Of a stretch of DNA of 32,000 bases, positions 1-32,000 are shown in pieces. Under the pieces are notes generated by a model. That model was not told where the DNA came from. It was given only the letters and a program-made list of their open reading frames with translations, and made no database searches. The stretch is from contig JAXLZO010000001.1 of the NCBI GenBank assembly GCA_046350815.1, positions 30,001 to 62,000 on the forward strand, read 5' to 3'. The translations under genes and the position numbers were made by a program. This stretch comes from Candidatus Saccharimonadota bacterium (lineage in GTDB: Bacteria; Patescibacteriota; Gracilibacteria; BD1-5; UBA2023). Each line of letters opens with the position of its first letter. The stretch's first letter is position 1.

Positions 1-32
1 AATCCTTCAGAAATATTTCTGAAGGATTTTTT
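1..32 (+). terminator. Rho-independent terminator-like hairpin at the window edge
   Basis: Stem 1-13 (AATCCTTCAGAAA) pairs perfectly with 16-28 (TTTCTGAAGGATT) and is followed by a T-run at 27-32. It would terminate a + strand transcript entering from upstream of the window. Confidence 0.5.
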
Positions 33-52
33 CATCTGATGACTCCAATATA

Positions 53-336
53 GATCCTGAACTAAATTCAGGATGATAAAATACAACTCCCCCCTACTCG
101 TAAACTCATTTTTTCCTCATTGAGGGGGATCAAAGTTGAAGTTCTTTATTTCTTCCCCTCTTGAGGGGTGCCGAAGGCGGGGTGGCTGTATTTTTGCCTG
201 AGTCATTTCGAACAAAGTGAGAAATCCCTTCGAATTACCTTTCAGTGAGAATATTATATATAAGGGATCTCTCCTAATGTCGAGATGACGAATATAGAAG
301 AAAAAGTAGGTCCCCTTATCTACGCGAGGATAACAA
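53..336. repeat. Intergenic mosaic hairpin-repeat cluster A
   Basis: Modules: GATCCTGAA-n-TTCAGGATGA hairpin at 53-77. AAAATACAACTCCCCCC at 78-94. CCTCATTGAGGGGG at 113-129. TTTATTTCTTCCCCTCTTGAGGGGTGCCGAAGGCGGGGTGG at 145-185, which is an inverted copy of 15508-15549. GTCATTTCGAACAAAGTGAGAAATC at 202-226. A reversed GTCATCTCGAC..GAGATCC hairpin at 265-289. A degenerate reversed copy of the 25-mer at 311-335. The stretch 53-122 is about 85% identical by eye to 25208-25277. Confidence 0.8.
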
Positions 337-354
337 ATTCACCGCAAAGAATCC

Positions 355-1671
355 CTACCGAAGTTCTTCAAGAACTTTATCTCGAATAGTATAATTTTCG
401 TATATTTTTTGAAACATACTAACTCATGGAGAAACAACAGAATTAACCATCATCATTCCAACAACATTCTTTCGTTGAAATATGGAACCAAAACTTTGAT
501 CTATAGAATATTCTTCCATAAAAGGCATATACGCTTTTCATTTGAAAAAACCCGACCACTCAAGACACCGCCATGAATCTGCTGGTAAATTATCTTGTCC
601 ATAGAGAATCTGAAAATAGCAAGCATCAAGCATTTGTTGTGTCTCTCTTCGATCCAGAGTTAGACGACCAAACCACTCGCTCAACACATCTGAATCACGG
701 GTCCAATCCTGTGGCACACCTGCCAGATCAAGCGTTTGATTCACTAGTTCATTCGTCTGATAATACTCAAACTGCCATGCACGCTGCTTTAAATCTTCCT
801 TAGAGACGATAGGCACAAGGAGTATTTCTTTGATTTGAGACCTTGAAACATCAGACAATTCAATGTTATGAAGGATATAAGAGATTAAATTGAGACTGTA
901 TTTCTCAGAAGCTATCATAATCATAGTTGGAACCATATTCGTCGTTCCTTCTTTCATTTTTTGACTAAATCAGTAGAGAAAGAGAGTTTTTCTCACGCAA
1001 TCATCCTCTCGATCTGCAAGACAATCCAGAAGTGCACTATAGCTCACATTTCTCGCAAATCTCTGTATTCACTCCTGAGGCATGCCCAGAGTCAAGAGAG
1101 AATCTTTATCACGAATATCAATTTTTGGAAGAACGGGAACAAATTGATATTGACTCATAATTTCCTCCATCTTTGGTATGATCTCATCCAAAGATGTGTT
1201 CAATATGTCAAAAGATTGTTGGTATTCTCCGGAGAGATATTGAGACTGAATAATGCGAATTTCATCAGGCGTTATGAAACGATTTTTTGGTGAACGTGCA
1301 CCAAAAGGCTCAGAAGAAAAAAGAACATTTCGAGAAACACTTCAATTATCAATATCAACGCTCGTACTTCCACCAAAAAGAAGATCTGATCATTCCATTT
1401 GACATATTTTCTGATCAATATTTATTTCGCTACAATGCTTCTTGCGAATATTCTGAAATTCCTCAGAGTAGAGCTTCTGGATAAGAAGATAACCATTTTG
1501 ACCATCCGGAATTGGTTGTACCTGAGGCATAAGAGATCCTGTATCCACATCAGGAATATTGAGATCCACATTGGAATTCCAAGCAAAAATACCAAGCCAA
1601 ACGACAAAAAGAAGAGCTGGAAGCATCAAGAGAACGATTAGGATTCTTTTAAGAATTTTCATACAAAACAT
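355..1671 (-). CDS. Hypothetical membrane-anchored protein (438 aa), last gene of the pilus operon
   Basis: Track ORFs 1390..1671(-) and 538..957(-), plus unlisted segments, are one frame joined through in-frame TGA (e.g. 1390-1392, 970-972, 538-540, 424-426). The true stop is TAG at 355-357. The N-terminus MFCMKILKRILIVLLMLPALLFVVWLGIFAW is a signal anchor. The ATG lies 10 nt after the pilT stop. I recognise no family. Confidence 0.6.
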
Positions 1672-1681
1672 ATATTATAAA

Positions 1682-2767
1682 CTACATCACACCATCACGA
1701 ATCATCTGTGGGTTATTTGCATACTTGAGAGCCTCATCAAGAGTGATTTCTCAGAACTTCACTGAATCAATAAGATCATGTTCCAGCAGCTGCATTCCTT
1801 CAGTTCGTCCTGTTTGCATGACGGATGGGAGTTGATGAAGCTCATTTTCACGAATAAGATTCGCGACCGCGGCATTACGAATAAGTATCTCTTTTACCAT
1901 TTTAACACCATATTGATCTTTTTTGAGAAGGAGACGTTGACTAAATACCGCTACAAGTGCTTCAGCAAGTTGCACACGAATTTGATTCTGTTGATCACCT
2001 GGAAAAGCATCGATAATACGAGTGATAGTTTGATACGCATTTCGAGTATGGAGAGTCGAGAATACGAGATGCCCTGTTTCTGCGAGCTTGAGAGCCATTT
2101 CAATCTCATTCTTAGTGCGCATTTCTCAGAAGAGAATAACATCCGGGGTTTGTCGCATAGCACCCATCAATGCTGTCGTATAATCAGGAACATCTTGACC
2201 GATATCCTTTTGTTCTACGATAGAGAGTTTGTGAGGGTGAATATACTCAATCGGATCTTCAATAGTAATAATATGCTTGTAATATCGATTATTGATCTCA
2301 TTGATAAGAGCTGCGAGTGTTGTAGATTTACCAGATCAGGTTGGTCCCGTGACGAGCACTAATCATTGTCCCACTTTCACAATATCCTCATAAACACGAG
2401 GGAGTCCTAATCCTTGAAGCGTTGGCATATCTCCAGAGAGAAGACGCAAAATTACCATGTGTGAGCCCATTTGAAATGAGAGATTTCCACGAAATCGAGA
2501 ATTTTGAAAACTGAATGCAAAATCAAGATTTTTGAGCGTGAGAAGTTTTTGATATTGCTCTTCATTGACAAGAGATTTTGCAAAATTTTCCGCTTCTTTT
2601 TGCGTGATCTCAGTCATTCCATCTTTGATGGGCGTGATCACACCACCAAGTTTGATAGATGGAAAAGCTCCTACGGTATAGTAGAAATCTGATCATTTAT
2701 TATCGATCATTACTGAGAGAAGTGCATCGCGAAGAGGATATTCGCTCAAGATAGTTTGGAAAGACAT
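1682..2767 (-). CDS. pilT: Type IV pilus retraction ATPase PilT (361 aa)
   Basis: Stitched from track ORFs 2363..2641(-) and 1751..2122(-) plus flanks. Walker A is GPT[TGA]SGKST with TGA at 2336-2338. Other motifs are PDVILF[TGA]EMR with TGA at 2126-2128, ETGHLVFSTLHT, and the C-terminal ITLDEALKYANNP. ATG is at 2765-2767 and stop TAG at 1682-1684. Confidence 0.9.
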
Positions 2768-2778
2768 AAAAAGAAAAA

Positions 2779-4008
2779 TTAAAGATTTTTAGCTACCTTA
2801 CCGAGTTCAAAGAATGGCATCATAATAGCGAGCACAATAACACCAACCATACCACCAACAACAACAATGATAATAGGCTCTAGTGCAGACATGATATTCG
2901 CAACATACTGTTTGAGTTCTTTCTCATAAATAATACCAGTATTCTTGATGCTGTTCGATACCGCACCAGTTTCCTCACCAACATTGATCATATAAGCAAG
3001 ATCCTCCGTAAAATATTTACTCGTAAAACTAAACTCATTTTTACCGCGAGAGAGTCACATGGATTGAGAGAGCTTCATTCATGCTTCTACCTCATTCTTC
3101 ATACGAATGATATCACGCTTGAAATGAATATTTGGAACAACCTTTGCAGTAATAACCAAAGCCTCAAGCATGAGAATGCCAGAATTGAGAAGCAAGGAAA
3201 GCGATGAAATAAAGAGAATAACATTCATCTGCTTTTCCATCCAACCAAAAACTGGGATCTTGAGGGAAATGCGATGAAGCCATATCTGCCCGTAATACGT
3301 TTGTCGGAAGAAATGAAAACCAACGATCAGTGCTACAAAAAACGAAAGAAGAATGATATAGTGATTGCGCATAAAATCAGACACATCGATCATAAATTGT
3401 GTAAGTGCAGGAAGTTGCACTTTTGCTTTTGCAAATGCCCCAGTAATCTTCGGAAGAATAAACACCAACATGAAGATCACGAGCGAGAATGAAAGAAAGA
3501 TGAGAATAGCTGGATATACCATCGCACCACGAATCTTCGAAGTAATCTCAATTTGTCATCGGAGGGTCTCTTCAAGATCTGTGAGTACTCTCGGAAGAGT
3601 ACCGGTTTTCTCCCCTACCTCGATCAATGAAATAATGATAGGATCAAAATATTTGCTATAGTTCTTGAGAGACTCTGATATAGGAATACCATAATCAAGA
3701 TTCTGATGAGTAGATATGAGTATATCCTTGAGTTTTTGATTCTTGATCTGCTTTGAAGCAATTCCCATGGCTGATTTAATATCAATACCCGAAGTGAGAA
3801 AACTCGCAAGTTTTGATATAAAGCGCCATACTTCTTTTTTACTAATACCGCCTATTTGTATCTGAAAATCAATATTATTATTTTGTAGAGATTTTCCTTT
3901 TGGTTGCTCAAGTTTGCTGCGTGCATTTTTGAGCAGCTTATAAAACAGTGCTGGATCAAATGAACCATCGCTGCGATAAAACTTGTGCGAACCAAAAGGA
4001 AATTCCAT
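2779..4008 (-). CDS. pilC: Type IV pilus platform protein PilC / GspF family (409 aa)
   Basis: Three same-frame track ORFs (3556..4008, 3079..3522, 2779..2991, all -) are joined by TGA at 3556-3558 and 3079-3081. The sequence shows the duplicated T2SSF architecture: GIPISESL..FDPIIISLIEVGEKTGTL and AYMINVGEETGAV, with hydrophobic TM segments. The real stop is TAA at 2779-2781. Confidence 0.85.
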
Positions 4009-4037
4009 AAAGTAGCAAGAAAGTTACAGATAATACA

Positions 4038-6020
4038 CTAGAGAGTGGTACCATTTTTTGAAATCAGATTAATACACTCTCGGATAACAAAGTCATACTC
4101 TCATTTGTGGTAGAGCTCCAGAAGAGTTTTATATTTTTCCCTCATCTTGATCTCTTGTTTTCTCTGAAGGGCATGTTCTTCGTTTTTCACCACCTCTTTG
4201 AGAAAGAAAACAAATTTTGGATGGACAAATCCATCACGATAGTTATTGAATACAGCTTGTTTCAGTTGGGTATACTCTCACAGACGAAGAAGTTCGGTAC
4301 ATTTGGCAAGGCGGATGCGAAGCTCCTCTTTTTGCTTCTTTTCTGTTATCATCTTTGTGATTTCTTCCTGAGTTTTTCAGCGAAATTCCACTTTTTTGGC
4401 TTCACGGAGATTGATTGCATCCAATGATTGAAGAATCTCTTTGAATATGGCATCATCTCGAACGATATCACGTTTCTCATTTCGCTCGAGAAAATAGAGA
4501 GATACATCATCGAGAAACTGCTCCTGACCCATAAATTTTCCTACAAAGAGAAGAGCATCTTCAATTCGATTTTTCGATTTCACTAATTCCATAACCATTT
4601 TCTGAACACGATCAAGTCAGAAAAGTTCTCATTTTTTATTACGTGCTTCAGGGATACCATCAGTATAACCAAAAATAATATCATCTTGATGGAGTACAAG
4701 AGGCTTTTTGTGGATGGAATCAAGATTGAGAATTTTTCGAACACCGAGTGCAAGTCAACCAGGAATCACCTTCTCCACTTTTCTCATGTTCGCACGATAT
4801 ATATAGAGTGGATCATGACCTGCTCCAATATAATAAATCTCTCGCTCTGAGTACACATATTCAAAGAAGATTGCTGTAACGAACATTCATCATTTGAGTG
4901 TAGCTTTTAAGCTATTATTGAGCTCAAACACGAGCTCTTCAAATGAGTATTTTTCAAAACGAACTTTATCAAAGAAGAGATTTGAGAGAGCTGCAACAGT
5001 CAATCCTGCTTTTACCCCATGTCATGTTGCATCTCAAAAATAGAATATCGTACTATCCTTACGGTGAAAATACCCAAACGTATCACCAATGACTCCATCT
5101 TTTCCAAGTATGCGCCCCTCAAAATTAAACCCTGGAAGTGAGAATCACTCCACATCCTTGATAGTACCATGCTGGATAATATTGAGTGCTGATTCACTAT
5201 TAGGATCGATGTTTCCATCTATCAGGTTCAACGCTCAAGCCTTTCGTAGAAGATCCTCAATAGATCGTAGATTCTTCGTACGGCTAATGTAATCACGATA
5301 TTTTTCCCTTCGTTCCTGAAAGTCATGATACATTTTTCTTATGCGTTCAAAAAAACCAATTTTTTCCTTTTCTTCACTTGTTCAAAGAGAAAGTGGATTT
5401 TTTATCGCATCATCACTAAATTCCTCTTTGATCAGAGCATCTACTTTTGCATCAATAATTTGAGAACCTTGTTGAGTATTCTTATTTTTCTCAAGTGCTT
5501 TTTGTGCATATTCAACCAGTGAAAATATAAGCTTCGATTCACGAAACTCGACACTGAGACGCTGTGCATACTTTACCGCTTCAAGATATTTTTTTGCTCC
5601 CACATAATTCTTCACTACCTTCTTTCCACGACTATAAGCAGTTGCCTCTCTTTTTTTAAACTCTTTCTCGAGAAAATATTTTTTCTTGCGAGAAACTTGT
5701 TTATCAAAAGAATCAAGCCTCTCAATATTCTTATCAAGATCCTTTATGGCATTACGAGACAATTCCAGCAATTGTTTTGCTTGAGCGGAGATTTTTGGAA
5801 TATTCGAAGAAATCAGTGGTTCATTCGATGCGATCATGCTACGATGATAATCTATTGCCTGATTGATTTTTGTACGAATCTCAAGAAGAGCTTTTTCAGC
5901 ATTTGCATAATCATTTGCACGAATATATACTTCGATCCACTCAAGCGCACTATTAAAAGTCTTCACACTTTCCTGAGAAGCATTTTTTGAGCGAAACCGA
6001 TGAAGAAAAGAGAAAAACAT
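4038..6020 (-). CDS. SpoIIE/PP2C-family serine phosphatase with long helical N- and C-terminal regions (about 660 aa)
   Basis: One frame runs from ATG 6018-6020 to TAG 4038-4040, reading through about 10 in-frame TGA (e.g. 5382-5384, 4377-4379, 4278-4280, 4101-4103). The core matches RsbU/SpoIIE motifs: GDTFGYF, FYFGDATGHGVKAGL, MFVTAIFFEY, YIGAGHDPLYIYR, IIFGYTDGIPEARN. The flanking regions are K/E-rich and look like coiled coil. An alternative GTG start at 6068 would overlap the pilB 3' end. Confidence 0.75.
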
Positions 6021-6028
6021 GAAGGTGA

Positions 6029-7270
6029 TTAAATCAATTGAAGAGCTTCTGAGAGGGTAGTTTTTCACATAATTGCCTTAATGAGACCATCTTGTAGTAT
6101 CGTGAGCATACCTTGTTCACGTGCCTTACGCTCGATATCAATAGCACTCATCTTCTCGAGAATCAGGGGATGCAATTCTTCGGTGATAGTGAGCACCTCG
6201 TGAGCAGCAATGCGTTTTTGATATCACGTATTATCACACTGATCACATCAGACTTTTACAGCAAATTCAAGATCACCAACTTGCTCATCACTGATAGCCT
6301 CTAGTTGCTCTCGTATGAGCTCTTGTTTTGCGTTATCACTTATTTTTGCATATGCTACACAATTGGGACATACTCGACGAATCAATCGCTGTGAGACAAC
6401 CATTTTTAGAGCCGAAGCAACGAGGTATGGCTCAATTCCCATATTTACCAATCGTTGTACCGTAGCAGATGCAGAATTGGTATGGATAGTCGAAAAAACC
6501 ATATGTCCAGTGAGCGCCGCCTCAATTGCCAACATTGCCGTTTCTCGATCGCGAATTTCACCAACCATAATAATATCAGGATCTTGACGCATCATAGATC
6601 GAAGTCCTGCGGCAAAATCATATCCTATCTCTGGTTTGACCTGACTCTGATTCACAAAAGGCATATTGTACTCGACTGGATCTTCCAGTGTTGAAATATT
6701 ATATTCAAGCGGCTTGAACTCTTTGAGCATGGAAAAAAGCGTGGTTGTCTTTCATGATCCTGTTGGACCAGCGATGAGAATAATGCCATAATGACTTTTC
6801 ATACTCTCACGAATACGATCAAGGTTAAGATCCATGAAATCAAGTCGATCGAGTGACAGCAAAGAGGAATCCTGTCGAAGAAGACGCATTACAATCTTCT
6901 CACCATATACAACCGGTAGTACTGAGACACGAATATCCACTGTCTCTCCCATTTTTTGAGAGATATATGCAATCTTTCCATCTTGCGGACGGAGCTTTTC
7001 ATCAATTCGTAAGCCAGAAAGCACCTTGATACGAGAATTAATTTTGGTGTATTCTTCATAGTTGAGCTTATCAATATAGACAAAATCACCATTTTCACGA
7101 TAACGGACAAGTACATAGTCATGAGTGCACTCAATGTGAATATCCGATGCACCACCTTGCAAAGCAAAATCAAAGAGCTCATCAGTATAACGCACCGTAT
7201 CAGTGATATTGGTTTTGATAGCAACCGTTGCAAATTGTTGTTCATCCCGAATGTGTTGTAGTGTGATCAT
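6029..7270 (-). CDS. pilB: Type IV pilus assembly ATPase PilB / GspE family, short form (413 aa)
   Basis: Track ORFs 6752..7270(-) and 6248..6730(-) plus a tail are in one frame. Walker A is GPTGS[TGA]KTTT with TGA at 6752-6754. Other motifs are MRQDPDIIMVGEIRD, TGHMVFSTIHTN, the tetracysteine CPNC..[TGA]CDQCDNTGY, and the C-terminal G[TGA]KTTLSEALQLI. Stop is TAA at 6029-6031. Confidence 0.9.
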
Positions 7271-7364
7271 AGAGTCAAAGAGTAATATGTCCTTGGAATT
7301 CTACCATATCTTCTTAGTTTACGCAAAATGTCGCCTTGCAAAGGAAGATAATCTGTTTGCAATT

Positions 7365-7394
7365 AAAAAACCCTCTTTTTCAAGAGAGTTTTTT
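7365..7394 (-). terminator. Rho-independent (bidirectional) terminator after the pilin gene
   Basis: AAAAAA-CCCTCTT-TTTC-AAGAGAG-TTTTTT. On the minus strand this gives a 7-bp stem with one G.U pair, followed by a T-run, 19 nt downstream of the pilin stop. Confidence 0.7.
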
Positions 7395-7412
7395 ACAATA
7401 ACAATCGGATGA

Positions 7413-8015
7413 TTAATAAGTTGAATGATGACCAACATCATTATGCACGATTTCACCAGATGCAGAGTTTGCTCGGGCAATAAGTCCCTTTGCACCATTA
7501 CCACCTGTATCAGCAGTAAAATTACCCTTTACATACACTGTTTCAACATCACCATTCATTACTGTAGAAGCAACTTGAAGTGCCGAATTACTAGATGTAC
7601 TAGCATAACCAACAAGAGGAGCACTCTCTGAAGATGTAGCATCACCCATATCCGCCTGAGCAATACCTGGAATTGCTGACCATTGTGGAGCTCCAGCCTT
7701 GATAGTAATAGAAGTAGCGCCGGTATTACCAAATACTGTTTTTCCAGTACCAACTACAATCGTTCGACCAGTAGCTGAACCACTATCAATAAGCGTAGTC
7801 ATGTCAACTGCTGTTGCACCCTTGGTATTCATAGCACTTGAGAGGAGACCCATATTCTCACGAACCTTCGCGGACTTAGCATCCTTTGTATAGTTCTGAT
7901 ATGAGAGGAATCCAACTGTTGCAAGAATTGCAAGAATCGTAATTACCACGATAAGTTCTACGAGAGTAAAACCACCTTTTTGACTCTTGAGAGCCTGCAT
8001 TTGAGAGAGCTTCAT
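7413..8015 (-). CDS. pilA: Type IV major pilin (200 aa)
   Basis: The class III signal [14 protein letters not shown]|[25 protein letters not shown] is the N-methylation motif (G/FTLxE). The rest of the protein is Thr/Ser/Gly/Ala-rich. There is no in-frame TGA. Stop is TAA at 7413-7415. The start is trimmed to the ATG at 8013-8015 rather than the track start at 8105. Confidence 0.85.
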
Positions 8016-8076
8016 ACAATATAATGATAAAAAAATAAAATTGTAGAAGGTTGTAGCATTCGCTGCGTACAGAGGC

Positions 8077-8105: not shown

Positions 8106-8316
8106 AAAAAACGTTATTCTTTTTGGAAAAAGAGGAATTTATGATTGTTTTGGTAAAAAAATTATGGTTTCTTCCACTCTTGATGAATGGTGGAATCTTA
8201 AGTATTTGCGACCACAGGGAATGATAGAGTTAGTATTCTATGTTCTTCCTTTAATACACCCACACAATTATAATTTAAGCACAATCATATATGCAATGTA
8301 AATACCAAAAGAGGAA

Positions 8317-8490
8317 GATCCTGAAACAAGTTCAGGATGACAGATAATTTGTTGTCATCCTCGCGGAGGCGGGGATCTACCAATTCAGCAAAGTCTGAGA
8401 TATATTTTCGTCCATCCAGAAGATTCACGACTTATCGCATCTATGCGATTTGCTGCATTCCCTATGGTCACCTGTCTGCACGGGAATGAC
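8317..8490. repeat. Intergenic mosaic hairpin-repeat cluster B
   Basis: Modules: GATCCTGAAACAAGTTCAGGATGACA at 8317-8342. The perfect 25-mer GTCATCCTCGCGGAGGCGGGGATCT at 8354-8378. ATCGCATCTATGCGATTTGCTG at 8434-8455. ATTCCC..CGGGAATGACA at 8457-8490. GGATGACA (8335-8342) and TGTCATCC (8353-8360) are reverse complements, so adjacent modules can also pair with each other. Confidence 0.85.
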
Positions 8491-8533
8491 AGATTTTTAT
8501 GATTTGACTTGAAAATCGAAAATTACCCGATCT

Positions 8534-9277
8534 TTATTCTTTCAAAAGAGCTTCAAGAGCCTTGTAAGCTCTCGAGAAAGGAATAAATGATGGGGAGGTT
8601 GCAATGGTAATAAGTCCAGCCCTATCAAACAACGACCGTACAAGAGGTATGCTATGCGACCATGGAATATAAGAAAGATCTTCACTCCAATAATCCAGAT
8701 CTATATTGAGAATATATCCAGATCGCCATTTTGAAATATCTCGAATGCACTCCAAATCATCTTCTCATTCCACTCGAAGAAAATCACCAATATAACCATG
8801 ATCGAGAAGCGGCCGAATATAATTTCCAACATTACAATACCTATGCGCGTATTCCCACCAATCAAGAGAGAATTGGCTGAAAAAGTCCTTAGGAATATTT
8901 TTATTCTCCCAAAGATCCGAATGTTCATCGATATGAATACATCAAACTCATTTTGAAAGCAATCCTTGATCAAATGCAATTCACCAAGCATGTGCTACCG
9001 CATTATGATTATCGCAGAGAACAACGGGGACTCATCCCATACAATCAATAAGACTCTTTTGAAGTGCAAAAAAAGAATCTGTTTGACTAAGACAAAAACC
9101 AATCTCCGAGGACTCACGTACATTTAAAAGTGAATCACGCTGATATTTAGGAATAAAAAGTTCTCTTGGCGGGTCAATAAGTTGACTATTGCCAGAATAA
9201 CTCATAACATATTTTCCACCACGATCTTCATTTAAGAGAGATTGAATGAAGACTTCAACCATCTGACCGTCTATCAT
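8534..9277 (-). CDS. Hypothetical protein, possibly UPF0489/arginase-fold like (247 aa)
   Basis: Track ORFs 9032..9277(-) and 8534..8755(-) are joined in one frame through TGA at 9032, 8981, 8948, 8942 and 8765. Motifs are VVLCDNHNAVAHAW and CIHIDEHSDLW (HxDxHxD-like). Stop is TAA at 8534-8536. The family assignment comes from motif memory only. Confidence 0.5.
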
Positions 9278-9810
9278 ACCTGAGGATCAAGATGTGCAAG
9301 TATGGTCGATACTACCTCATCAGGAGCAATCAAGGTTGTATCAACTGCTAAGTCAAACACATGTTCTTGAGGTGGAAATGGAATATGCGGATAGATTTGT
9401 GCATATCTCTCTGCATTTGCGTTATTTCTCGAATTTGTCTTTTGTGTTGCTTCTTCGACTGATAAGCCCTCACGTGAAGCGATACGATCCATGAAAACCG
9501 CATCATCTCATGTAAGTACAATCTTGTAACTATCAGGAATCCAATGCCATGCAAGACGGCTCTCAAACACAAACCCTTCAGTATTTTGACCATAGGATAC
9601 AATCCGTTCATCAATCTCATGATCCACATGAGGATGATCTTTTATATACTCACCAAACTCATAAATATCCATTCCATGATCGTGAGCACATTCACGCATC
9701 ATAGCACCAGAGGATTTGAACTCATATCCAAGCTTCTCAGCAAGAAGCTTTGCAGTAGTCGATTTACCACTTCCCTCAGGTCAGTAGATTGTTATTTTAG
9801 ATTTATTCAT
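9271..9810 (-). CDS. cmk: Cytidylate kinase, short (archaeal-like) type (179 aa)
   Basis: MNKSKITIY[TGA]PEGSGKSTTAKLLAEKLGYEFKSSG contains a P-loop. The rest reads ..VDHEIDERIV..FVFESRLAWHWIP..IASREGLSVEEA..ERYAQIY..FDLAVDTT. Track ORFs 9508..9702 and 9274..9492 are joined by a TGA. The gene ends GTA TGA TAG, with the true stop TAG at 9271-9273. Confidence 0.75.
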
Positions 9811-10195: not shown

Positions 10196-10328
10196 GATAT
10201 GGATGGTATATCTCCAGAGAAATATGTCAAGAAAAGAAGATTTTTTACGAAAATATGCAAGAAAAGAGTCAACTTTTTGCATTTTTTGAAAATATATCGT
10301 AGTATAGAAAAAAATATCTCTCTTGAGT

Positions 10329-11189
10329 ATGACATCACATTCTATTATTCATCGTTCTTCTCTCCCTTCAAAGCCTTCAAAAAGTAGTATTTTGCTCGCT
10401 ACGATATTACTTTGAAGTATCTTACTGACAGGTTGTGGAAAGACAATCAGTCCACAAGACAGCGAAAAACAAGCAACAGAGTCAAACGATCGCCAATTCA
10501 CAAAAAAGGGTGTTCCATATTTTGCCGACGTATGAGTTGCTATCGGTCTTAATGCTTGATACAAAAGCAAAAAAGACAATGACGTAGTAGTTAATCTCGC
10601 GGGCCAGGTCATCCCCATTCAGCAAGCTCTCGAAGAAAAAGATCTCAAACATCGAAAGATCATTGCATCCAATATTAATGAAATAGCGGCCTACCGCGAT
10701 ATACTCAAGATTGATATAAAAGAGAAGCTTGATAGCTCTCCGGATCGCCAAGCTACTCTCAAAGCTCATATGGAGCTCCTCAATAAACACTATAATCTCG
10801 CACAAGACAACCTCAAAGGACTCGATATTTCTCGAAAGGAAATCACAACAGCACTCGGTGAAATTACAACCAGAGTTAATAGTGCTCGAACTCAAGTGGA
10901 CAACTCTTTTGCAAAGCTTGATCCATCTGATGTTGATGAGTATGTCGGTGAGTATATCAGTGCAAAGGAAGACGAACGATATGCTCAGACCTATCTTGTA
11001 CTTACCGACCGATTGAGAGAACGGTATGCAAAACTGCAATCATACAATTCACTCCTCATTCAAACTATAGCGAACAATCGTGAAGCACTCATCGCCTGAG
11101 TAAGTGTAGTAATGCCAGCTCAAGGAAATGATTTTATGGATGATCTCTGACTTATAAAGACAGAAGCACAAAAAAAGACCGGGCAGTAG
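10329..11189 (+). CDS. Hypothetical lipoprotein with a coiled-coil-like body (286 aa)
   Basis: The frame of track ORF 10770..11099(+) extends upstream to ATG 10329 through TGA at 10413, 10533 and 10557, and downstream through TGA 11097 and 11148 to TAG at 11187-11189. The lipobox is SILLATILLGSILLTG|C. It is followed by the terminator at 11199-11232. Confidence 0.65.
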
Positions 11190-11198
11190 ACAAGATTC

Positions 11199-11232
11199 AA
11201 AAAATATTCTCCAATATTGGAGAATATTTTTT
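11199..11232 (+). terminator. Rho-independent bidirectional terminator
   Basis: AAAAAATATTCTCCAATATTGGAGAATATTTTTT is a perfect palindromic stem flanked by an A-run and a T-run, 10 nt after the lipoprotein stop. Confidence 0.8.
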
Positions 11233-11295
11233 GAATCAAAATTGATGATGGGTGGAAAAGATATAAACCTCTTATGGTCGAAATAATAAAAATAT

Positions 11296-11476
11296 GTCAT
11301 CCTCGCGGAGGCGGGGATCTACTTCTAATATCATTTTTGAATATACCATCTATTCATGAGATTCCCGTCTATATAGGAATGGCAAGAGAGTAGATATACA
11401 GAATGCAACCGACCTAAGCCCCTTTCTCAGATGGATAAAATCCGAATATGTCATCCTAAACTTAATTCAGCATCTT
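11296..11476. repeat. Intergenic mosaic hairpin-repeat cluster C
   Basis: Modules: the perfect 25-mer GTCATCCTCGCGGAGGCGGGGATCT at 11296-11320. GATTCCCGTCTATATAGGAATGGCA at 11360-11384. A degenerate GTCATCCTAAACTTAATTCAGCATC at 11449-11473. Confidence 0.8.
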
Positions 11477-11519
11477 CCTTTTTCTTATTACATACTATTT
11501 TGACTCATATCAGAGCAAA

Positions 11520-12383
11520 CTAACTTCGAGATTTCAGCCATTCATGAAATGCTGGGCCAATATCCGCTCGAGCAAGAGCAAAGTCAACAACTGCTTGCAA
11601 ATATCCAATTTTTGATCCAGCATCATAGCGTACTCATTGCGTCGTGATAGCAGTTAACTCCTCTTGTGCGGATAGTGCACGAATAAAGCCATCAGCAAGT
11701 CGCTTTTCACCACCAGCACTCACCCCAGAGAGCTCGATATATCGCCACATTGCCGGAGTGATAATATACTTTCCTATCACGGCTTGTCGTGAAGTTGTTT
11801 CGTCCGGACGAGGCTTTTCAAGAAATTGAGTTACACGATGCAGATGGTGAGTATTGTCAATATCAACAATACCATAAGAACTTACCGCTTCATCACTCAC
11901 TGTCTGAGTCAAAAGAACAGATGACCCATATTGTTCATATGCATCGACGAGTTCTTGAGCTCAAGTGCGCTCACCCATAATCAGGTCATCTCAGAACAAT
12001 ACAAGACACGGTTCATCACCTACAAAAGGACGAGCACAGAGAAGAGCATCCCCGTCTCATGTTGCTTCCGGCTGTCGTACATAAGCAATCTTTACACCGC
12101 AAGAAACCGATCGAACACTCTCAAGTTCTTTGAGTTTTCCTTTGCGTTCGAGTACTCATTCGAGCTCAAGAGAACGATCAAAATGATCAACAATCATATC
12201 CTTACCCCGAGAGAGCACAATTACGATTTCTTCAATACCAGCACTCACAGCCTCTTCGACAAGGTATTGAATTACTGGTTTATCAACCAATGTAATCATC
12301 TCCTTTGGCACTGCTTTGCTTGCTGGAAGCATACGCGTGCCATATCCAGCTGCTGCAATTATACATTTTTTGACGGCCTTCAT
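11520..12383 (-). CDS. galU: UTP--glucose-1-phosphate uridylyltransferase (287 aa)
   Basis: [45 protein letters not shown] is the canonical GalU N-terminus. YVRQPEAT[TGA]DGDAL and VLF[TGA]DDLI place TGA on conserved Gly. Track ORFs 12156..12383 and 11634..11912 are in the same frame. Stop is TAG at 11520-11522. Confidence 0.9.
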
Positions 12384-12443
12384 GAGAGAAAGGAGTGAAG
12401 AATAAATTATAGAGATTGTATTTCTCTGGAAAAAAAATCAATC

Positions 12444-14119: not shown

Positions 14120-14179
14120 AAAGATCGAGGAAAAAATAAATCGCCCCTATGCTATGAAAAAAAGTCATGAGAGCAAGTC

Positions 14180-25170: not shown

Positions 25171-25518
25171 GTAAAACGAGTCAGAGATTTGTATTTGAGG
25201 CGAGGAAGATCCTGAATCAAGTTCAGGATGACAAAATACAACTCTCACTGCTCGTAAACTCGTTTTTTCGACTCATTGCATCTATGTAATTCGCTGGACT
25301 ACTGAAGTTTACCCCATCATTGAAGGGTCTATGAGAAAATTTTTTTGTTCCTATCAAACCTCAATCAGTCCAAGAAAGTGTAACAACACAATAGTTCGGA
25401 GAATCAAAGTATGTCATCCTCGCGGAGGCGGGGATCTTGTATTCTTGTATTTGTCTTTATGTCTTTATGTATTTTGTTCCCCCTCATTGAGGGGGTTAGG
25501 GGGAGTTGTATTTTTTTT
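25171..25518. repeat. Intergenic mosaic hairpin-repeat cluster E
   Basis: Modules: GATCCTGAATCAAGTTCAGGATGACA at 25208-25233. AAAATACAACTC..CTCGTAAACTCGTTTTTTC at 25233-25270, homologous to 78-116. ATTGCATCTATGTAATTCGCTG at 25275-25296. The perfect 25-mer at 25413-25437. CCCCCTCATTGAGGGGG at 25479-25495. GGGGGAGTTGTATTTT at 25499-25514. Confidence 0.85.
25233..25514. mobile_element. Possible MITE-like unit bounded by 12-bp inverted repeats
   Basis: AAAATACAACTC (25233-25244) and GAGTTGTATTTT (25503-25514) are perfect inverted repeats enclosing about 280 bp of hairpin modules. A shorter analogous pair occurs in cluster A: 78-94 against the imperfect GGCTGTATTTTT at about 184-195. There is no coding capacity, and no target-site duplication was verified. 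Confidence 0.3.
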
Positions 25519-25527
25519 GAAATATAT

Positions 25528-25554
25528 AAAAAACGCAGGAATCTGCGTTTTTTA
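25528..25554 (-). terminator. Rho-independent bidirectional terminator downstream of the CHAP gene
   Basis: AAAAAACGCAG-GAAT-CTGCGTTTTTT has an 8-bp stem including A/T extension, with flanking A and T runs. Confidence 0.7.
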
Positions 25555-25559
25555 TTTCA

Positions 25560-25632
25560 CTGTCATCAGTCTATCATTAGCCTATCATCAGTCTATAATC
25601 AATTTTTGATCTATCATCAATCTTTAATCTAC
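25560..25632 (+). repeat. Phased 11-bp direct-repeat array (Pho-box-like architecture)
   Basis: Units: CTGTCATcagt (25560-70), CTATCATtagc (25571-81), CTATCATcagt (25582-92), CTATAATcaat (25593-603), a 7-nt spacer, CTATCATcaat (25611-21), CTTTAATctac (25622-32). The last two units overlap the CHAP stop codon at 25624-25626. Confidence 0.85.
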
Positions 25633-26226
25633 ATAGATGTATCACTTGATAGCAGGATGATCTTTGGGGATTTCTCGGATGGTTACGGTGTTGAGTTTTT
25701 GATAGTTCATGTCTTTGATGATGATCTTGGTATCTTTGATTCAGACAACAATTCATACATGTCAGTAGTAGGGATTGTATCCATGTCATTCAAGCTGTAT
25801 GATAGCACCAACAGCTGGGGCTTTACCAGTAGGTACTCATTGAGCTTTGGCATTACGGATCCATTGGTTTGCATTTCATCTCCAGGTTACACTCTTGTTC
25901 TGTGCGACGAAAGCGGTACAGTTTCACCAAGAAAAACGGGGATTATGACCATGATCTTTGATGCGATACGTCTTGTATCATCCCGTAAAAGGATCATCAG
26001 TATCAAGAAGACTTTCTGATTTTTTTGGTATTTCTGAGTGAATACTGGCTCATGTTTGATACACTTCAGCAGGTAGCATAAAAGATGGAGCATCCGTCAC
26101 ATAGTGACCTCATACATTAGCCGGATGGGACTCAATGATCTGGAAGGCAAATACTTGAGAAAAGCTTACCATCACACAGATAAGTGTCGTTGTAACCGTT
26201 GCTATCGATCTCGTATAACTATTCAT
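25624..26226 (-). CDS. Secreted CHAP-domain peptidoglycan amidase/endopeptidase (200 aa)
   Basis: This gene is visible only with TGA=Gly, reading through about 11 in-frame TGA. The signal peptide is MNSYTRSIATVTTLICVMVSFSQVFA. The catalytic region is FSW[TGA]NCTAFVAQNKSVTWR[TGA]NANQWIRNAKAQ[TGA]VPTGKAPAVGAIIQLE...Y[TGA]HV[TGA]IVV[TGA]IKDTKIIIKDMNY, with the Cys...His layout of CHAP. ATG is at 26224-26226 and stop TAA at 25624-25626. Confidence 0.8.
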
Positions 26227-26361: not shown

Positions 26362-27222
26362 ATGAACTCTGAAAAGCTCTCTATTGTCTTCTTTGGAAGC
26401 AATCATCTCTCCGTCGCATGCCTGGAAAAACTCGTTATGGATGAACGATTTGAGGTGCTTGCGGTTGCCTCTCAAACCGACAAGCCAGCGGGTCGCGGAC
26501 ACAAACTCACACCAACACCCGTAAGTCAGTATGCCATTGATCATGAAATCGCACTCTATCGATGTGATCGACCTTCACGAGATGAAGTATTATTCAATGC
26601 ACTTCACTCTATGAGACCAGATTACTTTGTCGTGGTCGCCTATGGAGCCATACTTCCCCAAAGATATCTCGATATCCCCAAGAAGCTCTCGGTCAATGTA
26701 CATGGGTCAATCCTCCCAGCATATCGAGGAGCTTCACCAATACAGACTGCTATCCTCGACCAAGCATCCATCACTGGCGTAACTATCATGCAAATGAGTA
26801 TGGGTATGGATGAGTGAGATATACTCTCAACGCAAGAAATCCTCATCGATGAAGCTGAAACAACTGGAAGCCTCTTTGAGAAATTTGCCATCGTATCGCC
26901 TAATCTTCTTGTGGAGACAATAGCAGAATACCATCAAGGAAAGATTGAGAGAATTCCACAAGATCATGCAAGAGCAACCTACACTCGCAAATTCACCAAA
27001 GAAGATGCGCGTTGGAACCTAGAAAAAACCATGGACGAAAATCTCGCTATCATGCGAGCAAATACTCCGGGTGCAATGCTCTGGGGAGAAATCGACGGGA
27101 AGAGGTATAAATTCACAAAACTCGAGAAAACAAGCGCTATCAATGAAGAGTGGGTACTCTCGTGTAGTGATGGTTGACTCAAAGTCATTGAAGCAATCGA
27201 CAACCTCGGAAAGAAAGTTTAA
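26362..27222 (+). CDS. fmt: Methionyl-tRNA formyltransferase (286 aa)
   Basis: LSIVFFGSNHLSVACLEKL..LAVASQTDKPAGRGHKLTPTPV..PDYFVVVAYGAILPQRYL..SVNVHGSILPAYRGASPIQTAIL contains the HxSLLPxxRG motif. MDE[TGA]DIL has TGA at 26815-26817. A second TGA is at 27175-27177. Stop is TAA at 27220-27222. Confidence 0.9.
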
Positions 27223-27766: not shown

Positions 27767-27827
27767 AAAAACTTGCCCTCACCCCATTCCTCTCTAAAAT
27801 ACGATCACTCATTTCTTACGACACGTC

Positions 27828-28595
27828 ATGTTTCCAATCGCCATCAATAGTTTTCGCGAATTTATTCGCAACAAAATACTCTCACTCATTACGTTCTTTG
27901 CTCTTCTTCTCATTGGCTTCTCCCTCTTTCTTGCATCGATTAGCATGGGAGAATCAACTCGACTCGTAGTAGATTTTGGACTTCAGATGATTGAACTCTT
28001 TGGGGTTTTGACGGTCGCATTTCTCGGGAGCCAAATGCTCTTTCGTGAGCTCGAAGGACGTACCATCTATCTCATTCTCTCAAAACCTATTGAGAGACAT
28101 GAGTTTCTCATTGGCAAATTTCTTGGGCTTGCTATGGTGATGCTCTTACTCGTCGGTATTGAATCAGGTGCGCTGCTGATCATTATGGCAATCAAAGGCA
28201 TGACCATCTCACCTTTGATTCTCCTTTCACTGCTCATGATTAGTATCAAGCTTCTTATCCTCATAGGAGTTATTATCTTCTTCTCTACCTTTACTGCGCC
28301 ACTCATAGCACTCAGCTCGAGTGTGGCAGTGTATTTGATAGGTCATACTGGTAGTGATCTTATCACTATGGGTATACGAACGGGAAATCATTTTATTGTC
28401 GCGATGGGGAGATTTATAGAAGTGGTATTTCCAAATATGGAAGCACTCTCACTTCCAAAATACGCTCTCAACTCTTCTATACATCTCTCATCATCAACTC
28501 TCTTTATAGCTATGGGAATAGCACTTGCATATATAACTATTCTTCTAATAAGTGCATCTTGGATCTTTAATCGAAAAAACTTTGAACGATTCTAA
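27828..28595 (+). CDS. ABC-2 family transporter permease (255 aa)
   Basis: This is an intact track ORF with six or more hydrophobic segments. The N-terminus MFPIAINSFREFIRNKILSLITFF..., followed by SKPIERHEFLIGKFLG, is typical of NosY/ABC-2-type permeases. There is no in-frame TGA, and no ATPase partner lies in the window. Confidence 0.7.
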   Translation: MFPIAINSFREFIRNKILSLITFFALLLIGFSLFLASISMGESTRLVVDFGLQMIELFGVLTVAFLGSQMLFRELEGRTIYLILSKPIERHEFLIGKFLGLAMVMLLLVGIESGALLIIMAIKGMTISPLILLSLLMISIKLLILIGVIIFFSTFTAPLIALSSSVAVYLIGHTGSDLITMGIRTGNHFIVAMGRFIEVVFPNMEALSLPKYALNSSIHLSSSTLFIAMGIALAYITILLISASWIFNRKNFERF

Positions 28596-29571
28596 TTATC
28601 CTTGGGCCTATATCCAAGGATTTGTTGACTTTTTCGGGGTACGGATTCTATGTGATGAGCGAGCACTGATCCCTCGATTTGAGAGCGAGAGTTTGGTACG
28701 TTATGCTCTCAAGCAAATAGAGCAAGCATGAACATCAAAACATCATAGTCTCATATGGGATGTCGGAGCTGGAACGTGAGTTCTCTGAATTAGCCTACTA
28801 AAAGCTCTGGATCACAAAAACACCGCACCCACCTCGCTTATCATCAGCGACATATCGCAAGAAGCTATTGATCTTGCTTATAAAAATATTGAACTCCACG
28901 CTCTCAGTGCAAGGAGTAGCCATCTTGTATCATCTCTGCTCTCAAGAGTCCCAGATGGTATACAGATAACAGATCATCTTATTATCCTTGCGAACCTTCC
29001 GTACATTCGAGATGATGAGAAAGAAATCATGAGCCCCGATACAGCATATGAACCAAGCATAGCACTCTATGGGAGTGATCCAGACGGGCTCTGACTCTAT
29101 CGTATACTCATTGAACAGATCAAGGATATCCATCGAAATTACAACAATCTCACAAGAATCGATATTTTTTTTGAATATGGACACGATCAAAAAACTGATT
29201 TTCTTGCTTCCCTTGACTGGCCTGGAACATACACAACCTTTGATGATCTCTCTGGAACGCAGCGATTTGCACATCTTACACTCACTTCTATGACATTCAA
29301 GAACCTCAATCTCTCACATATGTGGCAAAATCCACAAGCAAAAGCAGCAATCATCTATCATGATGTAGTCAAAACCATTCATGAAGCATCACCAGAAATA
29401 ACACCAACAAGTGTAGAACACAAATGAGAACAGATTATCATTAGTTGCCGAAACCCTGTATCAATCACGATTCTCAAAGAATCCCAAGAACTTATATTGC
29501 AAAATATTTCAGAACTCTTCAAGAAATATGGTGATACAAAAAATGCTCCGAAGAAAATTGCATTTCGTTAA
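28552..29571 (+). CDS. prmC: HemK/PrmC-family N5-glutamine methyltransferase with a short N-terminus and a roughly 100-aa C-terminal extension (339 aa)
   Basis: PWAYIQGFVDFFGVRILCDERALIPRFESE; the SAM motif DVGAGT[TGA]VL[TGA]ISL with TGAs at 28777-28779 and 28786-28788; and the catalytic NLPYI (NPPY-type). The frame runs from GTG 28552 (or TTG 28582) to TAA at 29569-29571. No fragment reaches the 60-aa cutoff of the track. The start overlaps the permease 3' end. Confidence 0.75.
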
Positions 29572-29583
29572 TTTCTAGTGACT

Positions 29584-30678
29584 ATGACACGAAGGCTCTC
29601 ACAAAAACATCGTATTATACTGTCATTGCTCAGTTTTATCGCGATCATTTTTGTAGGTTGATGGATCGGATATTCACATCAGGAATCATACCTCCAAGAG
29701 CTCAAGCCACTTGGGGAAAGAGTGCGAGAGGCATCAAACAAGAAAAATAGTATTGAAGCACCACTCAGCTTGAGTGATCATGCAATATATACCACCCCGA
29801 ATACCGATCTTATCAAGAAAATAGCAGAGCAAATTGATGAAGCAAAAACACAGGTGCTAGTAGAGGTCTATATCCTCTCAGAAAAAGAGATCAAATCAGC
29901 GCTCAAACGTGCAAAGGCAAGAGGAGTACGAGTGGAAGTCATACTCGAAAACGAACTCTATGGAAGCGATGTGCTTAGTAACAATAGTCGTCGGGAGCTC
30001 ATGTGATCAGGCATAGAAGTGATTGCGCCTGATCATGAACAATTCACATTCACACATTCAAAATTCATGATTATTGATGATGCCTACATTGTATCATCAT
30101 GAAACTTTGCCTACTCAAGCTTCAAAGATAACAAGGAATTTCTGATAATTTGAAAGAATGTTGAAGTTCATAACTATCTCATTCGTCTCTTTGAAAATGA
30201 CAAGGAACATAAAATATTTCGTGAAATCATACCTGGAGTCTTTTTCTCTCCAGTTAATGCACGATCTACCATCGAACACGCAATAGAGAGCGCACAAACC
30301 TCAATCGTACTGACAATGCAATCACTTGCAGACGAATCAATAATTAATCTACTCGAGTCAAAGGCGCAATCCGGGATAGATATATCCATATGCCTTGGTG
30401 ACACAAAGAAAGTGGAATGAAACCACAAAGTAGCCGCACAACTTATAAAATCAGGAATCAGAGTAAGTGCTCCGAAAAAGCCATATATTCATACCAAATC
30501 ACTCCTCATCGACGGATATGACTGGTATATAGGATCCATCAACTATACAGCTAATTCCATAGATCGAAACCGAGAACTCTGACTCTATCTGAGACTCGAT
30601 GAACAGAGGTCAAAGGAGCATATGCAAGGTTATCACAAAATTTGTTCTACTCCTTACATACCAGTATGAAAAAAATAA
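29584..30678 (+). CDS. Phospholipase D-like / cardiolipin-synthase-like protein with two HKD motifs (364 aa)
   Basis: The N-terminal TM segment is IILSLLSFIAIIFVG[TGA]W. HKD1 is HSKFMIIDDAYIVSS[TGA]NF. HKD2 is HTKSLLIDGYDWYIGSINYT. Track ORF 29722..30006 is in the same frame. Stop is TAA at 30676-30678. Confidence 0.8.
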
Positions 30679-31814
30679 CCCTTATGACCGCGCTCGGGGC
30701 ATGAAATTTGGGTGATGAACTGATTGCTTGGTGCGAGTACCGATGTATGCGTGAATATTTTCCAGAAACACAAATCTTTGTATACAACTATGAAGATTCA
30801 AATGGTCTTTTTTTAAAATTCGCAAAAAAAGACAAATCAGTACGCATGAGGCCATATTTTCCATTGAATATTTGCAAATATCCATTTCGTAATATAAGAG
30901 CACTCTGGAAAATGATCTTTGATATTGCTACATCAGATCTCCTCATTATTGGAGGGGGTGGACTTTGGTACGATAATGAACTTGGACAAAACCCTCATAT
31001 TCAACGATTGCAATGGATGCTACGAGTATGGATCGCAAAAGCTTTTCGCACATCTATACTCTTTTGGTGAATTGGTATTGATGTTGATAAAAAACATATC
31101 GCAAAATATCGATCAATATTTTCTGGAAGCAATACTCAAATCATCGTGCGTGACCATCATAGTCATGATTTACTGGAAAAAATTTGAATCTCTTCAATCA
31201 TTTCAACCGATTCGGTTATTACACTTTCAAGATATTTTCAAGAACTTCTCACACAAAATAAATCAGAATCATCTGAGAAGCTTCATATTGGAATCAGCGT
31301 GCGTTCAGGGTATCACCATGATGAAATTGATATTTTGAAGGATGTTGTGGGGCAACTACGCGAAAAATACTCAAATTGTGTTATTTATGGGCTCTCATAT
31401 TCACATCGAGAGGACAATCCTATTATCAGCGATACAACGCTCCTAAAACTCTTAAATTTAGATCAAATCATCATTGATCACGCAGAGATCGTCAAGCTAC
31501 TACCAACGCTTGATATCATGATAGCCACTCGATTGCATGCGATGATCACCGCTCGTCTCCTCAAAATACCCACACTCTGCCTCTCTTATGCAAGAAAAAC
31601 ACGCGAAGTATTTGTAACACTCAATGATCTGTGATACTGATACGGCATTATCACAGATCTTCAAACACTCAATTATGAAAACATTGAGCATCTCTTGATA
31701 GAATTCGAAAAAGGAAGAAACAATTTTTGACAAACAAAGCACAAAATTCAAAGAGAAAATCTGACTGATGAGAAAACAATTCTCAATTGGATATCTCAAA
31801 AAAATCCATCATAG
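30666..31814 (+). CDS. Polysaccharide pyruvyl transferase family protein (CsaB/WcaK-like, 382 aa)
   Basis: MKKITLMTALGA[TGA]NLGDELI is the GxGNxGDE motif. Other motifs are LIIGGGGLWYD and MIATRLHAMITARLLKIPT. Track ORFs 30708..31070 and 31299..31634 are in the same frame. Stop is TAG at 31812-31814. Confidence 0.75.
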
Positions 31815-31833
31815 CTATGATGGATTTTTTTGA
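31799..31833 (+). terminator. Rho-independent terminator overlapping the pyruvyl transferase stop
   Basis: AAAAAATCCATCATAGCTATGATGGATTTTTTT is a perfect 10-bp stem followed by a T-run. Confidence 0.75.
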
Positions 31834-31837
31834 GCAC

Positions 31838-32000
31838 ATGGACATTGAAGAAGAAATTCGTTTCGAAACCGAGAATACGTGAGACCAATTGTTTGATACG
31901 TATCAAACAAAGATCGTGCAATACTCGTCATTCCAAGTTGAGATGAACAGTATTCACAGAAATTCATATGGTATACCTCGAGCGCAAGTTTCGCTTGAAA
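31838..32000 (+). CDS. 5' end of an unidentified CDS, truncated by the window edge
   Basis: From ATG 31838 the frame is open to the window end, with one TGA read as Gly (MDIEEEIRFETENT.DQLFDTYQTKIVQYSSFQVEMNSIH...). It directly follows a terminator. There is no recognisable motif. Confidence 0.35.

Follow-up and report, generated by a model that had tools for sequence, protein, structure and literature searches.

Does this stretch of DNA carry a series of broken genes, or is it written in a code in which TGA is not a stop? The window, by which we mean the whole 32,000-nt stretch that was analysed (contig JAXLZO010000001.1 of assembly GCA_046350815.1, positions 30,001-62,000, forward strand), is cut into pieces by TGA under the standard code, and an original prediction had proposed that these codons fall on glycines and that the genes are intact under translation table 25. 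We find that TGA is a sense codon in the window and means glycine, and that no other codon, CGA and CGG included, is visibly reassigned. The identity of the residue follows from four independent lines of evidence: residues at the corresponding columns of solved structures, Pfam scores, profile scores for all 20 residues, and a reciprocal codon comparison with a recoded relative. We put at roughly 95% the probability that the window derives from the chromosome of an uncultured member of the Patescibacteria (candidate phyla radiation, CPR) from the UGA-recoded clade (Gracilibacteria/BD1-5 and Absconditabacteria, class JAEDAM01), using table 25 with UGA as glycine.

UGA as glycine is known only in Gracilibacteria and Absconditabacteria (PMC8629427, a Codetta screen), the code having been described by Campbell 2013 and Rinke 2013, as cited in PMC8629427. 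Absconditabacteria also read CGA and CGG as tryptophan, with CGA used fewer than 37 times per 10,000 codons; in some Gracilibacteria, CGG may likewise stand for tryptophan (PMC8629427). Users of table 25 sit in GTDB class JAEDAM01, orders BD1-5 and Absconditabacterales, and dozens of genomes labelled 'Ca. Gracilibacteria' at NCBI really use table 11 (gTranslate preprint). The original prediction had restricted TGA as glycine to Gracilibacteria and Absconditabacteria (SR1), which agrees with both sources and with the recoded relative described below.

Methods

Open reading frames (ORFs) were called as greedy non-overlapping sets under alternative stop codons, and the resulting map was refined at four sites where longest-ORF calling had taken antisense shadow frames. 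Genes were identified against Pfam with TGA masked as X. For the Pfam test, glycine, tryptophan or X was put at TGA positions within domains and the bit scores were compared over 10 families. For the scoring of all 20 residues, profiles of PilB, PilT and PilC were built only from standard-code homologs, with the query left out. X-masked window proteins were further aligned to solved structures in the Protein Data Bank (PDB), whose source organisms all use the standard code, and the residue facing each TGA was recorded. The relative used for codon-level comparison (L004) is JALNXF010000006.1, 'MAG: Candidatus Gracilibacteria bacterium SO_2016_LW3 bin 25', a metagenome-assembled genome (MAG). 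A further 120 metagenome loci were gathered with an intergenic 24-mer repeat of the window as probe; the repeat is common to organisms of either code. Hairpin repeats were compared with the published Ssn-related motif (SRM) pattern HGTCWYN(0-2)YYVSBRHN(0-5)WNVSBRGN(0-2)RNCYNB (PMC11893778).

Reading frames with TGA as a sense codon

With TAA, TAG and TGA all taken as stops, the window holds 55 ORFs with a mean length of 150 amino acids (aa) and a coverage of 76%; with TGA opened as sense it holds 27 ORFs (mean 394 aa) covering 96%, and the genes are, as had been claimed, not broken. Opening TAA or TAG in place of TGA brings little gain. Among the 17 genes of the first-pass map, neither TAA nor TAG occurs once in frame, while each is found 75-196 times in the two off-frames. 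The refined map comprises 24 genes and 9,429 codons (88% coding), with 135 in-frame TGAs spread over 20 of the genes. All 20 are broken under code 11, in keeping with the earlier statement that the standard code splits nearly every gene, and the biggest unbroken piece is typically one third to one half of the gene. Read as glycine, TGA supplies approximately 21% of glycine codons and lifts the glycine content from 5.7% to 7.1%. In the structure alignments of PilT, PilB, TrmD, GalU and Fmt, homology extends across the TGAs and past them to normal C-termini.

The seven TGA coordinates given in the original prediction are all in-frame TGA codons on the stated strand, in contexts that match the quoted motifs (marked in Table 2), and the GalU codon, which had been left unplaced, lies at 11991-11993(-) in the context LVLF(TGA)DDLI. 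All 24 genes of the refined map do end in TAA or TAG, as had been claimed for the stitched genes, but the claim is partly circular: because the ORFs are defined by such ends, it cannot by itself exclude termination at TGA. An exact-protein look-up, for which the ABC-2 permease was used, placed window genes in public data on Logan contigs of at most 6.6 kb (SRR26348419/22/23) and nowhere else; the gene calls on these contigs already read through TGA. Congeners with approximately 80% nucleotide identity are present in the ENA assemblies ERZ724506-ERZ724527.

Identity of the residue encoded by TGA

In the solved structures, the residues opposite successive TGAs are A/G, G, G (Walker A), G (GEMR) and G in PilT; G (Walker A), G, G and G in PilB; G, G, G (S-adenosylmethionine (SAM) motif) and D in the PrmC-like protein; A/A/F, G, A/A/G, V/V/A and G in GalU; G, G, V, G (yGHV), A and K in the CHAP amidase; K, G and a gap in PilC; and N/K, F/L and I/M in the PLD-family protein, the homologs of which are very remote. 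Both TrmD columns and the Fmt column at 26815-26817 are glycine in 3/3 homologs. Taking the best homolog per column, the 32 columns comprise 20 Gly, 4 Ala, 2 Val, 2 Lys and one each of Asp, Asn, Phe and Ile, with no Trp and no Cys; at a 7.5% glycine background, 20 or more glycines would be expected with a binomial probability of approximately 3e-15. Glycine thus occupies about 60% of the alignable TGA columns. The description of these sites as invariant glycines stands for the Walker A, GEMR, TrmD, PrmC and Fmt sites and fails for about a third of the alignable TGAs, among them the GalU site VLF(TGA)DDL, which had been listed as invariant and where the column reads Ala/Ala/Gly. In PilT, PilB, TrmD and PrmC, the four proteins for which this alignment had been proposed, nearly all columns are glycine (the exceptions being A/G in PilT and D in PrmC) and none is tryptophan. 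Some of the non-glycine sites fall on columns of Lys/Arg or of hydrophobic residues; a single step separates TGA from AGA, CGA and GGA.

Pfam scores point to the same residue (Table 1). Summed over the 10 families, they amount to 1474.5 bits with glycine, 1382.9 with X and 1349.3 with tryptophan, which places glycine approximately 125 bits ahead of tryptophan and 92 ahead of X.

Table 1. Bit scores of window domains against Pfam families with glycine, tryptophan or X at the TGA positions
Family	Gly	Trp	X
T2SSE	499.0	470.4	471.7
T2SSF	159.5	156.8	155.8
SpoIIE	109.3	83.3	92.2
TrmD	159.5	149.2	152.7
NTP_transferase	103.7	92.4	96.8
Cytidylate_kin2	52.8	47.6	50.2
Fmt	113.7	106.6	107.5
PS_pyruv_trans	95.4	78.8	86.0
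CHAP	55.3	35.7	41.2
PLDc_2	126.3	128.5	128.8

When all 20 residues were allowed to compete, glycine scored best in each of the three profiles: 499.1 bits in PilB (79 homologs; Ser next with 486.8, Trp 483.6), 410.6 in PilT (56 homologs; Ala 398.1, Trp 390.8) and 284.8 in PilC (61 homologs; Arg 282.1, Trp 280.9). In the standard-code homologs behind these profiles, the PilB columns are glycine in 79/79, 47/79, 79/79 and 51/63 sequences, the PilT columns read A47/G9, G56, G56, G56 and G33/R17, and the PilC columns are Lys/Arg, glycine in 61/61, and variable. The structure columns, the Pfam sums and the three profiles together bear out the assignment of TGA to glycine under table 25.

A recoded relative and the placement of the organism

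Among at least 588 PilB loci from GTDB species representatives, the best match to the window lies on the 'Ca. Gracilibacteria' MAG introduced above (57% identity; the rest at most 49%). It shares with the window the gene order PilB, SpoIIE-type phosphatase, PilC, PilT, at 59, 35, 55 and 68% amino-acid identity, and is itself recoded, with an ORF coverage of 32% under code 11 versus 96% with TGA as sense. In codon-level alignments of these four ortholog pairs, the 83 TGAs of the relative stand opposite GGN glycine codons (46), TGA (15), alanine (6) and scattered other residues in the window, never tryptophan; conversely, the window's 25 TGAs stand opposite TGA (15), glycine (5) and others (5).

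The two organisms differ in GC content (26% in the relative vs 39% in the window), in TGA usage in the four genes (83 vs 25) and in that CGA and CGG are absent from the relative, which belongs to a different genus at least. The relative's phosphatase (11170-13185 of its contig) occupies the same pilus-cluster position as that at 4038-6020(-) of the window, with 35% identity; judged by sequence comparison, this suggests that the phosphatase has a conserved regulatory role in the pilus cluster within the recoded clade.

Given that the NCBI label 'Gracilibacteria' is heterogeneous, the name of the relative proves nothing by itself; what counts is that it is demonstrably recoded and syntenic with the window. 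The organism is probably on the BD1-5 'Gracilibacteria' side of the UGA-recoded clade, and high CGA usage argues against Absconditabacterales.

Extent of the reassignment

CGA occurs 121 times per 10,000 codons in the coding regions of the window, falls on arginine in 3/4 conserved PilB columns, and is aligned to arginine or lysine in 15 of the 21 alignments listed with the relative. Of 18 CGG codons in confirmed coding regions, a single one falls on a conserved column, where it forms the arginine of the GalU (T/S)GR(G/S/N)K motif, which is arginine in 3/3 structures. No other deviating codon was seen on the PilB alignment. The extended code of Absconditabacteria resembles the window in UGA as glycine but not in its treatment of CGA, which is common here and on arginine columns, or of CGG, which sits on the conserved GalU arginine. 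In contrast, NCBI table 25 (the SR1/Gracilibacteria code) matches the window in UGA as glycine, in UAA and UAG as sole stops and in UGG as tryptophan; its users likewise have CPR-type genomes and type IV pilus genes, the low to moderate GC of the window (39%) lies within their reported range of 0.21-0.53, and no tested feature differs. By these alignments, CGA and CGG are still arginine, the second reassignment of Absconditabacteria is absent, and plain table 25 fits.

Decoding of UGA and evidence to the contrary

By analogy with what is established for the clade, a dedicated tRNA-Gly whose anticodon is UCA would decode UGA, and release factor 2 (RF2) would have been lost, leaving termination to release factor 1 (RF1) at UAA and UAG. 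The identity elements expected of tRNA-Gly(UCA) with table 25 are G1:C72, C2:G71, G3:C70 and U73. Members of the clade have this tRNA and lack RF2 (PMC8629427; gTranslate preprint).

Several observations weigh against a table 25 chromosome of this clade. PLDc_2 scores marginally higher with X or tryptophan than with glycine, the sole family of the 10 without a glycine gain, and approximately 12 of the 32 structure columns are not glycine in homologs. No tRNA was found in the 32-kb window and none in the relative; the 120 metagenome loci (730 kb, related or repeat-sharing) contain 4 tRNAs, of which none bears a UCA anticodon. When the fetched loci were scanned for release-factor motifs, no such gene was detected on a recoded contig, the matches being one RF1-like gene and one release-factor-domain fragment, both on standard-code contigs. 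Finally, the placement is based on the best match of one protein together with synteny, under a heterogeneous NCBI label.

Alternative readings of TGA

TGA could have a dual meaning, encoding glycine within genes yet terminating translation, in full or in part, where some genes end. In two genes, a TGA stands 0 or 2 codons ahead of TAA or TAG and makes up, with the start codon of the gene that follows, a classic ATGA overlap: in the Cmk-like kinase, TGA is the last sense codon, directly followed by TAG, and overlaps the start of the UPF0489 gene (9274-9277(-)); in the PLD gene, it lies two codons before TAA and overlaps the start of the pyruvyl transferase gene (30666-30669(+)). The predicted C-termini would be ...YIPVGKK on read-through versus ...YIPV on termination for PLD, and ...DPQVG versus ...DPQV for the Cmk-like kinase. 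If such residual, context-dependent termination did occur, TGA would be a dual-meaning codon in a lineage thought to be wholly without UGA termination. We nonetheless hold this to be unlikely: about one near-terminal TGA is expected by chance among 24 genes, no release factor reading UGA is known in the clade (gTranslate preprint), and the junctions are equally well explained as fossils of ancestral TGA stops that are now read through to a nearby back-up stop, which is the simplest reading.

Tryptophan, as TGA is read under table 4 in Mycoplasmatales and several insect endosymbionts, accounts for the long ORFs as well as glycine does and scores 2 bits above it in PLDc_2. Table 4, whose users are Mycoplasmatales, Hodgkinia, Zinderia, Nasuia, Stammera and some Eggerthellaceae, also resembles the window in having UGA as a sense codon and RF2 dispensable. 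The residue differs, however. Tryptophan occupies none of the 32 structure columns, trails glycine by the Pfam margin given above, and is among the lowest-scoring residues of the PilB and PilT profiles; TGAs of the window and of the relative never pair with tryptophan in one another, and the TGG codons of the window pair with tryptophan in the relative and never with TGA. TGG also falls on conserved tryptophan columns (in TrmD, W in 3/3 solved homologs), in agreement with the earlier statement that it is still used for tryptophan. At the level of the window, the table 4 reading is refuted, and we give it hardly any chance.

It is just as improbable that TGA stands for another residue, be it selenocysteine or cysteine or a small residue such as alanine or serine. 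Alanine is the second commonest residue at TGA columns (4/32 in structures, 6/83 in the ortholog test), but in both the PilB and the PilT profile glycine leads Ala, Ser and Cys by 12-15 bits, and the glycines of the Walker A, SAM-motif and zinc-knuckle sites are structurally obligatory. As for selenocysteine, which would show as rare UGAs on Cys/Sec columns together with a SECIS element, 135 sites are incompatible with its insertion, no TGA column is cysteine, and the window has no Rfam element at gathering thresholds.

Some phages are known to recode stop codons, and the window might accordingly be a phage or plasmid with a recoding of its own rather than part of a cellular chromosome. This too is very hard to sustain, since its genes are of housekeeping and cell-envelope type (TrmD, Fmt, HolA-like, PrmC-like, GalU and the type IV pilus cluster), megablast of the window against 50,697 phage and 72,556 plasmid records gave no match, and the pilus cluster is syntenic with a chromosomal MAG contig.

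A standard code, with TGA as a true stop in a region of pseudogenes or faulty assembly, has nothing in its favour beyond the look of the code-11 translation and a next to negligible probability, given that frames are interrupted by TGA alone and never by TAA or TAG, that the interruptions sit on conserved glycines of essential genes (TrmD, Fmt) and Walker A loops, that the same genes are present in independent public assemblies, and that a relative at approximately 60% amino-acid identity has 15 of the 25 TGA positions of the four pilus-cluster genes.

Gene content and other features of the window

The genes read with TGA as glycine are listed in Table 2 along with repeats and rejected frames. 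No RNA element was found in the window with Rfam at gathering thresholds.

Table 2. Features of the window (p, TGA position named in the original prediction)
Feature	Position	Strand	In-frame TGA	Match	TGA positions or remarks
Hairpin repeat	52-78	+
Hypothetical membrane-anchored protein, 438 aa	355-1671	-	6	no Pfam match
PilT retraction ATPase	1682-2767	-	5	Pfam T2SSE; PDB PilT 4.8e-81	2693-2695, 2363-2365, 2336-2338 (Walker A; p), 2126-2128 (GEMR; p), 1751-1753
PilC platform protein	2779-4008	-	3	Pfam T2SSF	3556-3558, 3079-3081, 3055-3057
SpoIIE/PP2C-type phosphatase	4038-6020	-	13	Pfam SpoIIE	within pilus cluster
PilB assembly ATPase	6029-7270	-	4	Pfam T2SSE, 357 bits	6752-6754 (Walker A; p), 6248-6250, 6224-6226, 6065-6067
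Antisense shadow ORF	7191-8024	+			rejected
Type IV prepilin	7413-8015	-	0	Pfam N_methyl 5.6e-08	G|FTLVELIVV
Hairpin repeat	8316-8342	+
Hairpin repeat	8353-8378	-
Hairpin repeat	8471-8494
UPF0489-domain protein	8534-9277	-	5	Pfam
Cytidylate-kinase-like (Cmk-like) P-loop kinase	9271-9810	-	3	Pfam Cytidylate_kin2	9781-9783 (first Walker A glycine), 9508-9510, 9274-9276 (adjoins TAG stop)
Lipoprotein	10323-11189	+	5	no significant Pfam match	LTGC lipobox
Antisense shadow ORF	10422-11318	-			rejected
Palindrome, 44 nt	11194-11237
Hairpin repeat	11295-11320	-
Hairpin repeat	11359-11385
GalU-type UTP-glucose-1-phosphate uridylyltransferase	11520-12383	-	5	PDB 3.3e-71	12156-12158, 12057-12059, 11991-11993, 11961-11963, 11634-11636
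TrmD tRNA (m1G37) methyltransferase	12444-13118	-	2	PDB 8.4e-49	12696-12698 (p), 12642-12644
FKBP-type lipoprotein	13118-14119	-	1	Pfam FKBP_C 2.2e-10
Antisense shadow ORF	13256-14458	+			rejected
HolA-like (DNA polymerase III delta)	14180-15187	-	5	Pfam DNA_pol3_delta 9.7e-4	weak match
Hairpin repeat	15307-15330
Hairpin repeat	15337-15362	-
Hairpin repeat	15453-15480	-
Giant Cys-rich secreted protein, 1730 aa	15599-20791	-	28	no Pfam match
Direct repeat, 112 nt	19526-19637 / 19826-19937				95% identical
Large protein, 1029 aa	21031-24120	-	18	no Pfam match
Secreted protein, 220 aa	24323-24985	-	0
Hairpin repeat	25207-25233	+
Antisense shadow ORF	25384-26076	+			rejected
Hairpin repeat	25412-25437	-
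Secreted CHAP-domain amidase	25624-26226	-	11	Pfam CHAP
Fmt methionyl-tRNA formyltransferase	26362-27222	+	2	PDB 4.3e-47	26815-26817 (p), 27175-27177
ABC-2 permease	27828-28595	+	0	Pfam
PrmC/HemK-like methyltransferase	28552-29571	+	5	PDB HemK 2.2e-15	28729-28731, 28777-28779 (p), 28786-28788 (p), 29092-29094, 29425-29427
PLD-family protein, two HKD domains	29584-30678	+	7	Pfam PLDc_2	last at 30667-30669
Polysaccharide pyruvyl transferase	30666-31814	+	6	Pfam PS_pyruv_trans

The CHAP amidase has the highest TGA density of the window (11 in 200 codons, approximately four times the average), and its biggest code-11 fragment is 38 aa long. Opening TGA as sense also opens antisense shadow ORFs of 230-400 aa; those in four places were rejected as genes, the real genes opposite them being the prepilin, two lipoproteins and the CHAP amidase; one of them (25411-26076) is also annotated as a gene on a public Logan contig (L001). 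The SpoIIE/PP2C-type phosphatase, placed between pilB and pilC, has a long coiled N-terminal region, and no solved relative of its SpoIIE domain is detectable by sequence. Aligned to Thermotoga maritima HemK, the PrmC/HemK-like protein reads NLPY versus the catalytic NPPY of the family; its best start is GTG, and it carries a C-terminal extension of approximately 100 aa without a match. The two giant proteins (1,730 and 1,029 aa) are probably surface proteins. The larger is rich in cysteine, with recurring C-G-D/N-G motifs, and its gene contains the direct repeat. The palindrome is perfect, with 22-nt arms and zero spacer, and lies between two convergent genes, 5 nt past the lipoprotein stop codon; it may serve as a terminator in both directions or bind a protein.

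The intergenic gaps harbour a family of hairpin repeats, each made up of a GTCAT flank, a stem of 8 bp and ATC. The stem comes in three variants: GTCATCCTCGCGGAGGCGGGGATC (four identical copies), GTCATCCTGAA-N5-TTCAGGATC and GTCATTCCCG-N6-CGGGAATC. All three form stable folds (z -2.3 to -4.1), and the repeats are similar to the Neisseria dRS3/NTS and Ssn-related motifs, which are cleaved by SsnA GIY-YIG single-stranded DNA nucleases (Chenal 2025, PMC11893778). One copy, 15453-15480(-), matches the SRM pattern, versus 0.03 expected by chance; the two remaining stem variants have the same GTCAT-hairpin-ATC layout without fitting the pattern. A crude motif scan revealed no SsnA-like ORF. The exact 24-mer GATCCCCGCCTCCGCGAGGATGAC (window 8354-8377, used as probe) is present on at least 120 metagenome contigs (L084-L203) of 35-70% GC, which include TGA-recoded and standard-code organisms, and usually lies 25-35 nt downstream of a GTCATTCCCGCG..CGGGAATC hairpin. 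A literature search on the stereotyped junk peptides of these hairpin repeats gave no match.

Conclusions

The code described here was reported in 2013, and tools such as Codetta and gTranslate now pick it up automatically; finding it in this window opens no new question. Its consequences are for annotation. Under table 11, 20 of the 24 window genes are fragmented, and table 4 would set tryptophan in P-loops and SAM-binding motifs. Genes as dense in TGA as that of the CHAP amidase would be missed by standard-code gene callers. Conversely, in sequence of 39% GC with TGA opened, the longest ORF is not always the real gene, which calls for caution when recoded genomes are re-annotated. Other findings from the window should be re-read under table 25 and, with CGA and CGG as arginine, need no further correction.

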